A stretch of DNA of 52,289 bases, from IMG/VR virus record IMGVR_UViG_3300035502_000579, one strand, 5' to 3'. Positions 5,983-8,179 of the stretch are shown here, in pieces (position 1 is the first letter of the stretch; every line of letters begins with the position of its first letter). The position numbers were made by a program, and so were the translations under genes. The stretch comes from a virus. The notes beneath the pieces were generated by a model. It was not told where the DNA came from and did no database searches. It saw nothing but the letters and a program-made list of their open reading frames with translations.

Positions 5983-7590
5983 ATGACAAAAAAATATATT
6001 TTAAGACCTGCGAATTCTGAGAAGATGAAAGATGCAGCTTATTTTTTTTATTTAGCAAATAGATATACAATAATTTTGAATATAATTAGAAGACATCCTG
6101 ATTGGGTCTCTGAAGAAGAAAAAATAGATTATTTATTTAGATTAGTAGAAGCTGAAATGTCATATAATATTTTACAAGATAAAATCTGGAAAGAAGAGAA
6201 ATTTCCAGATAAAGATAACTTTTTTTGTATTTAGTTTGATGGTAATTAGGAAGGTTTTTCTGTTATATTAAAAGAAAATAGTGATTTAGTTTTACCTGAT
6301 TGCTGTGAAAGAAGAAAAAGTAAACAATATCAAGACTATATGGATTGGATATTTCCAAATAATGAAAAAAAGATTTCCCATAAAACAATGACTTTTTAGG
6401 TAACAGATAATTGTAATTTATGTTGCACCTATTGTTATTAGGGAAATAAACATACTAATGTAATGTCTTTTGATTTGGCAAAAGAAATGATTGATTAGAT
6501 GTTTGAAAATAGGAAAAAAGAAGATTCTTTTTTTTATGAAGGAAAAACTACATCTTTAATTATAGATTTTATTGGCGGAGAACCTTTATTATATCCAGAT
6601 TTAGTTTATGATATTATTGAATATTTTGAATATAAATGTTTGCAAAATCCTGATAGTCCTTGGCTTTTAAGGCATATGTATTCAATAAGCACTAATGGAA
6701 CAACTTATTTTTCTCCAGGAGTACAAAAATTATTAGAGGATTTTTCTTCTTTAATAAGTTTAGGTATTACTTTAGATGGGATAAAAGAATACCATGATGC
6801 TTGCAGAGTCTTTGCAGATGGAAGCGGTGGCAGTTATGATATTGCCAAAGAAGCTGCAATTTATCATTTATAGAGATATAATGGAGATAGTACAAAAATA
6901 ACTATTTCTCCCGATAATGTATAGTATGTTTATGAAGCAATTAAAAATATGTATAATTTAGGATTCAATGAGATCTATATTAATTGTGTTTTTGAGGATG
7001 TTTGGACAAAAGAAAAAGCTATAGAATTATATTATTAGATGAAAAACGTTGTAAATTGGATTAAAGAAAATAATTTATGGAATGAAATATATATACGTCC
7101 TTTTGAGAGAAATATTTATTGTTCTTATAATGGTGAAGATAAAAATTGGTGTGGGGCAACTTCTTCTATGTTGGCTATGGATTATAAAGGAGACCTTTAT
7201 CCATGTATTCGCTTTATGGAGTCTTCTTTAGGGTCTGATGTTGAACCTTATAAGATTGGAAGTTTAAAAGAAGGTATTGGAACTATAGAGATTTATAAAA
7301 AAAGATTGTCAGATTTAGAGTCTTTAAAAATGATGAACCAATCAACAGAAGAGTGTATAAAATGTCCAATAGGGAAAGGATGCTCTTGGTGTAGCGCTTA
7401 TAATTATTAGGTTTTTGGAACTATTTTTCATAGAGCAACTTTTATATGTGATTGTTATAAAGCATTATCTTTAGCTAATTATTATTATGAAAATTGTAAA
7501 GGAATATCTCACGAAACAAAAATTTCAAAACAATTAGCTTTATCTTTAATCTCTGAGCAAGAATGGAGAGATATTTAGGGGGTAGAATAA
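5983..7590 (+). CDS. radical SAM / SPASM-domain enzyme (anSME or peptide-maturase-like), TAG-recoded
   Basis: track ORFs 5983-6234, 6499-6873 and 7039-7410 are one frame joined through 6 TAG. CNLCCTYC (CxxxCxxC) rSAM motif. C-terminal CIKCPIGKGCSWC and CDCY..C Cys motifs. Stop TAA 7588-7590. Confidence 0.7.
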
Positions 7591-7591
7591 T

Positions 7592-8179
7592 ATGGCTTGC
7601 GATAGTGGAGGTTGTAGTACAAGTTGTTATACTGGTACAAAAGATTGTAGTTGTGGCGATGGATGTAAAGGTGGTTGTAGTTCTTGCTCTGGTGATTGCG
7701 GAGGAGGATGTAAAGGCACGTGTTCTGACAGCTGTTCAGGAGGATGCTCTAGTGGGTGCTCAGGTTGTAGCGGTGGCTGTAAAGGAGGATGCAGAGGATG
7801 CGGTAGTGCTTGTTCTTCTAGTTGTGCTGCAACCTGCACTGATAGTTGTAACAATGGATGTACTGGAGAAACTACAACTAATATATATGAACGAATAGGG
7901 CTTAATACTTTAATTTTATCAAGTGATATTATAGATTTAAGAGATATGGCTTTCCACGAGGCAGCAAGAAGTGCAGGATCAGCATGGGTTGGAACCACTA
8001 CTGAAGCTGTTGGTGAAAAAGCTTTATATGAAAGTATTAGTATCATTTATGATAATTTAACAAGTTTAGGTTATACTTTAACCTCAGAAGAATAGTATAA
8101 ATTAATGCATAAAGATATCATTCAAACCTATATAGATGCAGCAAAAAGCGCATATGAAAGATGTATCCCAGCTAGTTAA
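7592..8179 (+). CDS. Cys/Gly/Ser-rich protein (candidate rSAM substrate)
   Basis: SD GGGGGTAG; N-terminal ~100 aa of C(S/G)GGC-type repeats (>30 Cys) plus C-terminal ~70-aa globular part. Track ORF ends at TAG 8093-8095; with TAG=Gln it continues to TAA 8177-8179. Confidence 0.6.

Follow-up and report, generated by a model that had tools for sequence, protein, structure and literature searches.

A phage-borne CXXX-repeat radical SAM enzyme and its likely target protein, encoded with TAG as glutamine

The subject of this work is a cassette of genes at positions 5470-8179 of a stretch of viral DNA of 52,289 nucleotides (IMG/VR record IMGVR_UViG_3300035502_000579; the whole stretch is called the window in the following). 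It encodes a radical S-adenosylmethionine (SAM)/SPASM enzyme of 535 amino acids (aa) and, directly downstream, a 195-aa protein that opens with a tract of Cys-X-X-X (CXXX) repeats. Judged by family models and conserved motifs, the enzyme is shown to be a maturase of the TIGR04115 family and, going by conserved gene order, the Cys-rich neighbour is almost certainly its substrate. The region as a whole is read here, with fair confidence though well short of certainty, as a phage-borne cassette of the ‘CXXX-repeat’ radical SAM maturation system, in which a phage protein would be cross-linked and left uncleaved. The features of the region, with the hairpin that precedes it, are as follows.

5412-5442, plus strand: terminator-like hairpin with a T-run, between open reading frame (ORF) 5085-5402 and the first ORF of the cassette
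5470-5979, plus strand: accessory ORF of 169 aa with two in-frame TAG codons, matching an ORF of the related phage contig L002 (BLASTP E 1e-5)
5983-6300, plus strand: residues 1-106, an accessory-like domain at the N-terminus, continuous with the radical SAM enzyme through in-frame TAG codons
6301-7590, plus strand: core of the radical SAM/SPASM maturase, residues 107-535 of the 535-aa ORF 5983-7590
7592-7867, plus strand: CXXX-repeat tract of the target protein, residues 1-92, closing with the conserved junction CTDSCNNGCTG
7868-8179, plus strand: conserved helical domain of the target, residues 93-195, and TAA stop, as defined with AlphaFold2 (AF2) and hhalign; TAG (Gln) at 8093-8095

Layout of the locus and its genetic code

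Under the standard bacterial code (translation table 11) the enzyme frame is split into pieces at 5983-6234, 6499-6873 and 7039-7410, and the gene is invisible because all 10 in-frame stops of the 535-codon frame 5983-7590 are TAG. When ORFs are called again with TAG as a sense codon, 5983-7590 (535 codons, 10 TAG) and 7592-8179 (195 codons, one TAG) are recovered. The TAG codons of the enzyme found in TFqVTD, CYqGNK, LYYqMK and YNYqVF (q, TAG) fall in invariant or majority Gln columns of an alignment with 14 homologues, and in the comparison with a 76%-identical relative (L090) TAG stands opposite CAA six times, TAG three times and TGT once. The lone TAG of the Cys-rich ORF sits in a column where several homologues carry Gln, and the 27 residues beyond it match the conserved C-terminal helix of the protein family. 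Furthermore, of the 51 ORF ends in the window, 43 are TAA and eight TGA, and none is TAG. That TAG is read as Gln in this phage is well supported, four independent results being in agreement, and both the enzyme and the Cys-rich ORF need this assignment.

The pair could otherwise be taken for an artefact, namely a pseudogene broken by stops followed by a chance frame in a G+C-rich patch, as the 10 stops under the bacterial code and the openness of other frames across 7563-8046 might suggest. Every interruption, however, is a TAG at a conserved Gln, with the sixfold TAG/CAA pairing in the relative and no ORF of the window ending in TAG, and the Cys-rich ORF is neither a chance nor a spurious frame because it has hundreds of homologues, invariant Cys columns and a conserved domain; this reading is refuted, and its probability is practically nil.

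In-frame TAG is present in about 19 ORFs of the window. It is dense in the radical SAM genes and in ORFs 1845-2765, 49416-50093 and 50096-51022, and absent from the genes for gyrase, ligase, a vault-like protein and Band_7. Few ORFs of the window are as dense in TAG as that of the enzyme, in which 10 of the 18 Gln codons are TAG and 8 CAA. Borges and co-workers are said to have put forward, in 2022, the idea that recoded stops hold back the translation of late genes; by analogy, the TAG load of the enzyme, as opposed to zero TAG in replication genes, would fit late expression of the cassette and is no proof of it. The TAG-rich ORFs 1845-2765 (eight TAG) and 50096-51022 (six TAG) are paralogues built of repeated G-x-x-F-G-x-x-x-V...C-x-C-x-C-G modules, and no Pfam match was found for the former.

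The 52-kb window has 15 tRNAs (8263-19448), and none of them has the CUA anticodon of a TAG suppressor. Right behind the Cys-rich gene, at 8263-8337, ARAGORN calls a tRNA-Asn with the unusual anticodon ATT; this tRNA-like element was considered as the TAG suppressor and rejected on account of its anticodon, an acceptor stem made only of A and T, and an anticodon stem with a mismatch, and is a doubtful or degenerate tRNA.

The two genes are closely spaced: the TAA stop of the enzyme (7588-7590) and the ATG of the Cys-rich ORF (7592) are one nucleotide apart, just as an initial annotation of the locus had stated, and a Shine-Dalgarno-like AGGGGG (7577-7582) lies ahead of the ATG. That annotation described the anatomy of the two ORFs correctly and missed their dependence on TAG recoding, the fused domain of about 106 residues and the cassette ORF 5470-5979. 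The locus offers a clean case for translating recoded phages with the right code.

The enzyme, its target and their pairing

The enzyme scores 359.3 bits (E 2.8e-107) against the TIGR04115 model (‘radical SAM peptide maturase, CXXX-repeat target family’), over the curated cutoff of 350, with residues 134-502 aligned to model positions 2-359 of 359. For the SPASM model TIGR04085 the score is 33.9 bits (cutoff 27) over residues 390-483, and in Pfam Radical_SAM (38.6, cutoff 29.5) and Fer4_12 (25.9) are matched. The CxxxCxxC motif is formed by C144, C148 and C151 (6412-6435) and the SAM-binding GGEP by residues 198-201. The SPASM domain carries seven Cys (C390, C408, C458, C461, C467, C470 and C489; 7150-7449), the set that goes with two auxiliary clusters, in the spacing C390, G403-x4-C408, C458-x2-C461-x5-C467-x2-C470, C489. 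All motif and SPASM Cys, as well as GGEP and G403, are at least 90% conserved in a 50-sequence alignment.

The models ranked below TIGR04115, i.e. those of PapB (164.3 bits), QhpD (98.5), CcpM (93), the Nif11-peptide maturase (81) and the SCIFF maturase (80.2), are all far under their own cutoffs. The only significant solved structure by sequence is that of CteB (5WGG, E 1e-17), the alignment spanning the radical SAM core and the SPASM region and beginning at residue 119 of the enzyme and residue 83 of CteB. Homologues at E<=1e-20 number 2701; most are of 425-460 aa, and the start of most aligns at or just past residue 107 of the window enzyme. Longer homologues (507-533 aa) were considered as further cases of N-terminal fusion and rejected, five being extended at the C-terminus instead; the long homologue P0094 (P numbers are used for homologous proteins, L numbers for loci and contigs) contains an internal duplication that looks like an assembly artefact, not an N-terminal fusion. 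In cultured phages the enzyme matches only the radical SAM gene pairs of SPN3US- and Kwan-like jumbo phages, and a megablast search of positions 5000-20000 against 50,697 phage records gave no match.

The tract of the target protein contains 23 Cys within residues 1-90 (positions 3, 8, 12, 19, 21, 25, 29 and so on up to 90), 16 of the 22 spacings being exactly 4, and the whole protein 24. Residues 1-92 include 24 Gly, 23 Cys and 19 Ser; those between the Cys are mostly Ser, Gly, Lys, Asp and Thr, with Asp at the middle position in only three of 16 CxxxC units. No tandem repeat was found at the DNA level under the tract. A word-indexed search gave 46 homologues of the target, and an exhaustive profile search 913 cluster representatives at E<=1e-3 and 308 at E<=1e-10; they are mostly of 170-250 aa and match end to end. 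The hallmarks of the family are an N-terminal MACDxGGCS, a variable number of CXXX units, the junction C(T)DxCNNGC(T)G and a C-terminal domain of roughly 100 aa with a helix D-I-x-x-L-x(6)-E-x-x-R-R. Twelve Cys columns are invariant and six more at least 90% conserved; among the repeats, conservation is found in those closest to the domain.

The initial annotation had the enzyme as a radical SAM protein with CxxxCxxC and C-terminal SPASM Cys, and its partner as repeat-rich at the N-terminus. Both descriptions are borne out, the former by TIGR04115, TIGR04085 and the motif Cys, and the enzyme coordinates are right. Of the two outcomes it had named as speaking against its reading, clustering of the enzyme with QueE or NrdG is not seen, and non-conservation of the Cys-rich ORF is contradicted by the wide conservation of that ORF.

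In AF2 models the target domain consists of four helices (95-101, 110-126, 146-158 and 174-189), with a predicted local distance difference test (pLDDT) of 59-79; for residues 1-89 the pLDDT is below 50, which means that there is no confident model and is not a sign of intrinsic disorder. In PDB and BFVD no fold matches this model at E<=0.001, the Cys tract being unmodelled. The helical domain aligns with the N-terminal domain of CXXX proteins of a prophage type (hhalign probability 96.5%, E 1e-9), and by this profile comparison the window-type and prophage-type domains are the same domain in permuted order.

Curated models recognize the target unevenly. TIGR04114 (‘Cys-rich repeat-containing protein’) gives it 14.4 bits (E 0.042) and its cutoff of 20 is missed; the cutoff is passed by two relatives, P0016 (24.9) and the L001 protein (21.3), and no match is given for others, such as L012 and P0003, probably from low-complexity filtering. 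The tract matches phrog_6085 at E 0.009. A tblastn search of the phage collection with the window target gave no match, and no cultured phage record there has a CXXX protein; the prophage-type target matches only the metagenomic record MT835573. At 6988-7695 of L007 and 5363-6073 of L092, public gene calls skip or mis-frame CXXX genes, and an ORF in the wrong frame, rich in Val, Ala and Leu, is called in place of the CXXX gene. The family is probably under-counted in protein databases because such calls miss or mis-frame its genes.

The enzyme gene is directly upstream of a window-type target in all eight loci examined (the window, L002, L003/L004, L005, L094, L095, L096 and L097). In a bacterial scan of one genome per prokaryotic species, about 22 loci encode enzymes at least 36% identical to that of the window, nearly all in Clostridia and other Bacillota. 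At 40% identity or more there are 17 loci, 15 of which have a large CXXX-repeat ORF no farther than about 1 kb from the enzyme gene. Most of the CXXX proteins of these loci have the reversed order, the 80-270 residues of repeats coming after an N-terminal domain (LxxLKxxVKAEMxRR...GSV..YGG..YDF). The Cys-rich protein is read as the substrate because of this pairing, which is found in the eight window-type loci and in most of about 20 bacterial loci; that the two are an enzyme-substrate pair of a TIGR04115-type family is held with high confidence.

A very unlikely alternative is that the target is left unmodified and binds metals or Fe-S clusters (as a metallothionein-like protein, cluster scaffold or redox buffer) or is disulfide-bonded, the enzyme being a neighbour with another substrate, or the target its helper. 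The Cys/Gly/Ser composition is indeed like that of metallothioneins, AF2 shows no ordered structure for the tract, and the nearby upstream ORFs 2786-3748 and 3648-5081 also hold CxxC clusters. It is contradicted by a gene order tightly kept across very different phages and prophages, by the co-variation of enzyme and target architectures, and by the nature of the enzyme family, a dedicated peptide maturase with a full SPASM domain that also pairs with short leader-plus-CXXX peptides. Moreover, it is unlike a metallothionein to have a regular Cys-X3 period that runs over hundreds of residues and is fused to extracellular-type domains.

Besides the pair, the cassette contains two further elements. 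The first about 106 residues of the enzyme appear to be an accessory domain fused in this lineage. They occupy the place of the substrate-recognition domain of CteB, the RRE (recognition element of RiPPs, i.e. of ribosomally synthesized and post-translationally modified peptides), as the position at which the cores align indicates. Relatives carry a separate ORF of 92-126 aa directly upstream of, or overlapping, the enzyme gene (L002, L005, L007, L009-L013, L015, L017, L019, L020, L023, L031, L094, L095 and L096), with which the fused domain shares length, position and a pattern of helices followed by a beta-hairpin. The matches are weak by BLASTP (31% over 73 aa of the 103-aa ORF of L009, E 0.016) and by hmmsearch (E 0.005), and hhalign gives P 0.006 versus 0.15 for a reversed control; homology is inferred, not demonstrated. 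The in-frame fusion across TAG is also kept in L090. A single-sequence AF2 model of the homologue P0167 is predicted, at low confidence (pLDDT 58.6), as beta-alpha-alpha-beta-beta.

The second element is the 169-aa ORF 5470-5979, for which no match was found in Pfam, NCBIfam or PHROG. It has a counterpart of 166 aa in the same slot of L002 (E 1e-5), and the slot holds an ORF of 160-200 aa in many loci (L009, L015, L017, L019, L020 and L001); homology with these same-slot ORFs of distant loci was considered and rejected (hhalign 0.1%). The cassette start is set at 5470 because this ORF matches that of L002 and the hairpin 5412-5442 precedes it. The hairpin is the sole terminator-like site in 5000-8500, a count equal to the shuffle mean of 1.0, and is likely the upstream boundary of the transcription unit, as judged from position and not from statistics. 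The cassette, 5470-8179, is larger than the 5983-8179 given earlier, and includes the accessory ORF and the fused domain. Upstream, ORF 2786-3748, one of the two neighbours with CxxC clusters, encodes an M28-like peptidase 2 kb from the cassette, and is not conserved with it in L002 or L003.

Maturation and role of the target protein

In the mechanism proposed, the helical domain of the target would be a docking element, like a leader or follower peptide, and its partner the roughly 100-aa accessory domain, fused to the enzyme where CteB has its RRE; the chances that the helical domain has such a role are about even. The enzyme would cleave SAM reductively at the CxxxCxxC cluster, the 5′-deoxyadenosyl radical would take a hydrogen off a backbone or side-chain carbon inside a repeat, and the adjacent Cys thiolate, held at an auxiliary SPASM cluster, would trap the carbon radical to yield a thioether. 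One cross-link would be introduced per CXXX unit along the tract, beginning at the conserved repeats beside the domain, and the Gly/Ser-rich tract would become a chain of small rings, i.e. a stiff, protease- and redox-resistant rod. Thioether cross-linking, proposed by analogy with CteB, PapB and QhpD, is a chemistry that may as well hold as not. The modified protein would be neither cleaved nor exported and would remain part of the phage; its most plausible role would be that of a stalk or adhesin element associated with the tail, baseplate or fibre.

Whether the tract is a permanent part of the protein is best judged from the relatives of the cassette. A sister subclass (L024-L028, from Clostridium zeae, Maledivibacter and others), whose enzymes are 38-41% identical to that of the window and are encoded by ORFs of about 710 aa in four of the five loci, has peptides of 57-73 aa with a leader plus CXXX repeats about 1.3 kb downstream of the enzyme in all five. 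Three of the loci (L024-L026) have an ABC transporter upstream, and two (L024-L025) an S8-like peptidase. On TIGR04118 (‘rSAM-modified Cys-rich RiPP’) the L025 peptide reaches 39.7, above the cutoff of 35, and these loci are the conventional RiPP form of the TIGR04115 system. It could accordingly be argued that in the window, too, the tract is a core peptide that is cross-linked, cut from a ‘follower’ domain and freed at lysis as a ranthipeptide- or sactipeptide-like bacteriocin or signal, the enzyme belonging to the RiPP-maturase clade and long leader or follower domains existing in other RiPP classes. This is unlikely. No recognizable protease or transporter is encoded in 5470-8179 or in any phage-type locus examined, and a tract that varies from about 80 to about 700 residues among homologues is unlike a defined bioactive peptide. 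Fusions of the CXXX repeats to tail-protein, cell-wall-binding and Ig-like domains argue for an integral protein segment; thus P0285 combines repeats and domain with phrog_5302 ‘tail protein’ (6e-32), P0276 carries choline-binding repeats, in P0172 about 700 aa of CXXX are combined with Listeria-Bacteroides repeats, and P0295 has Ig-like domains. Finally, in prophages the gene commonly comes after a tail-fibre gene.

The genomic setting, too, points to the tail in the reading favoured here, of an uncleaved and cross-linked phage protein. The Caproicibacterium genome CP135996 has two copies of the system, each in a prophage, with Baseplate_J and tail-fibre genes on one side and a GH25 endolysin on the other. 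A 140-aa tail-fibre-like protein, which matches PHROG minor-tail and tail-fibre families, has homologues encoded upstream of the enzyme in 11 bacterial loci, and in most of them this gene ends at or just before the CXXX gene. The cassette is also beside tail-fibre or baseplate genes in L001 (MT835573), L005, L009 and L094. The phage-type branch resides in phages and in prophages of Clostridia, often right after a tail-fibre gene. That the product is associated with the tail or the virion is put forward tentatively, at somewhat less than an even chance; the full picture, of a thioether-stapled CXXX rod translated late via TAG recoding and acting as a tail stalk or adhesin in phages of anaerobic gut bacteria, is possible and a degree more doubtful.

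Several observations weigh against this picture. In the window, L002, L003 and L097 the cassette lies among tRNA, metabolic or replication genes, with no recognizable tail module. In the related 180-kb phage contigs L002 and L003 it is found between Band_7 and PhoH, whereas in the window it is at 5.4-8.2 kb, where Band_7 is at 34129 and PhoH at 36438. Its location has thus changed in the course of the history of these phages, and such mobility is no less in keeping with an accessory gene than with a structural one. An adhesin domain is absent from the window target itself, and the cultured phages of the collection are devoid of CXXX proteins. As to docking, the fused domain resembles the free accessory ORFs only weakly, and the topology predicted for it departs from that of a canonical RRE.

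The thioether chemistry, in turn, is drawn from the nearest relatives, all of which are far below their own family cutoffs, and no demonstrated chemistry for any TIGR04115 member was found in the literature. The repeats are mostly Gly and Ser, with few of the Asp or Thr that are the acceptors of PapB and CteB. In L095 a gene with a YcaO domain (8929-10626) is directly downstream of the window-type CXXX protein and its enzyme, so that another Cys chemistry is to be considered in at least some loci; it suggests additional azoline or thioamide formation on such substrates in some phages. These same points, together with the many reactions of SPASM enzymes, are those in favour of a different radical chemistry, such as formylglycine or dehydro-residue formation of the anSME kind, epimerization, C-C or C-O cross-linking or a step cooperating with azoline formation. 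Such a chemistry is nonetheless improbable, as the best-scoring characterized relatives (PapB, QhpD and SCIFF/CteB) all form thioethers from Cys to carbon, the anSME models are outside the 25 best matches of the enzyme, and the only invariant feature of the substrate is Cys at fixed spacing, as expected of a cross-link donor.

The interest of the system lies in a curated family of about 2700 enzymes and about 900 target clusters, for which the tail-gene setting and the fusions to tail and cell-wall-binding domains provide a testable hypothesis, namely radical SAM cross-linking of a structural or adhesive phage protein. If the stapled rod is real, TIGR04115 systems would mainly mature phage structural proteins rather than natural products, RiPP enzymology would reach large uncleaved proteins, the virions of phages of anaerobes would have a new form of post-translational reinforcement, and a repetitive, programmable scaffold for poly-thioether rods would be at hand.

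Other features of the window were recorded along with the cassette. A second, different Cys-rich locus (locus B, 14256-18125) contains three tandem radical SAM/SPASM-like genes (14256-15293, 15254-16309 and 16303-17505), for which the PapB family is the best NCBIfam model, in all cases far below cutoff, followed by a 200-aa protein (17523-18125) with Cys clusters at both ends; homology of the Cys-rich proteins of the two loci outside their Cys tracts was considered and rejected (BLAST E 6e-4, hhalign probability at most 1.4%). An RNA-ligase-like ORF (28719-31124, PHA02142 OB fold) is split by an intein with a LAGLIDADG endonuclease, a DUF2828/DUF7788 protein is encoded at 19848-21410, and the 810-aa product of 22197-24629, whose gene is conserved in L003, has the repeat and shoulder domains of Major Vault Protein.

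Comparison with known systems

The window resembles TAG-recoded gut phages (code 15-like) in having in-frame TAG at Gln positions of conserved genes, in never ending a gene with TAG and in confining TAG mostly to a subset of genes; it differs from them in that their decoding tRNA(CUA) has no counterpart among its 15 tRNAs. Giant phages are also the setting of the radical SAM gene pairs of the SPN3US- and Kwan-like jumbo phages, which are likewise SPASM-like and phage-encoded; these are only 25-27% identical to the window enzyme over the core.

With respect to RiPP maturation, the initial annotation had likened the locus to a maturase with a Cys-rich precursor. The outline of a maturase and its substrate stands, on family scores and pairing, and the classical RiPP framing is probably wrong for the phage-type branch: in a classical cluster the precursor is short, with a cleavable leader, whereas the window target is a 195-aa protein with a folded domain. 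CteB, the maturase of SCIFF (thermocellin), forms a Cys thioether on a Cys-rich peptide, and its N-terminal substrate-binding domain corresponds in position to the extra 106 residues of the window enzyme. However, the low-confidence beta-alpha-alpha-beta-beta topology of these residues does not follow the canonical RRE order, the SCIFF maturase model TIGR03974 gives 80.2 bits versus a cutoff of 425, and the SCIFF substrate, of roughly 45 aa with six Cys and one or a few links, contrasts with a 22-repeat tract with 24 Cys in all on a folded 195-aa protein.

PapB (freyrasin) and QhpD (with QhpC) provide the second- and third-best family models for the enzyme. PapB closes small thioether rings one after another along repeated Cys-X3-Asp motifs, and a ring in every repeat would, by analogy, have its nearest precedent here; the Cys that QhpD cross-links belong to a protein subunit, not to a peptide. 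The cutoffs of both (340 for PapB, NF047865, and 453 for QhpD) are missed, the repeats of the window target are of the form Cys-X3-Cys, dominated by Gly and Ser, with Asp in mid-unit as rarely as stated above, and the cassette differs from both systems in being without genes for leader cleavage or export. The anSME model (TIGR03942, cutoff 349) is not among the 25 best models of the enzyme, the weakest of which scores 27.6 bits. Identity with the SCIFF, PapB, QhpD or anSME systems is excluded because all of those cutoffs are missed.

The locus belongs instead to the curated CXXX-repeat system of NCBIfam/TIGRFAMs, i.e. TIGR04115 with the targets TIGR04114, TIGR04117 and TIGR04118, and the initial view of an undescribed system gives way to the fact that these families already cover the pair. 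The system was defined in silico, and no paper with experimental work on it was found in the literature. The window enzyme is over the cutoff of its family and the neighbouring protein shows the defining Cys-X-X-X periodicity, although it remains below the TIGR04114 cutoff (14.4 versus 20). Compared with the prophage form, the window form has the repeats N-terminal and the helical domain C-terminal in the target, carries an accessory-like domain fused to the enzyme, and has its genes written in the TAG-as-Gln code of a giant phage of the gut type.

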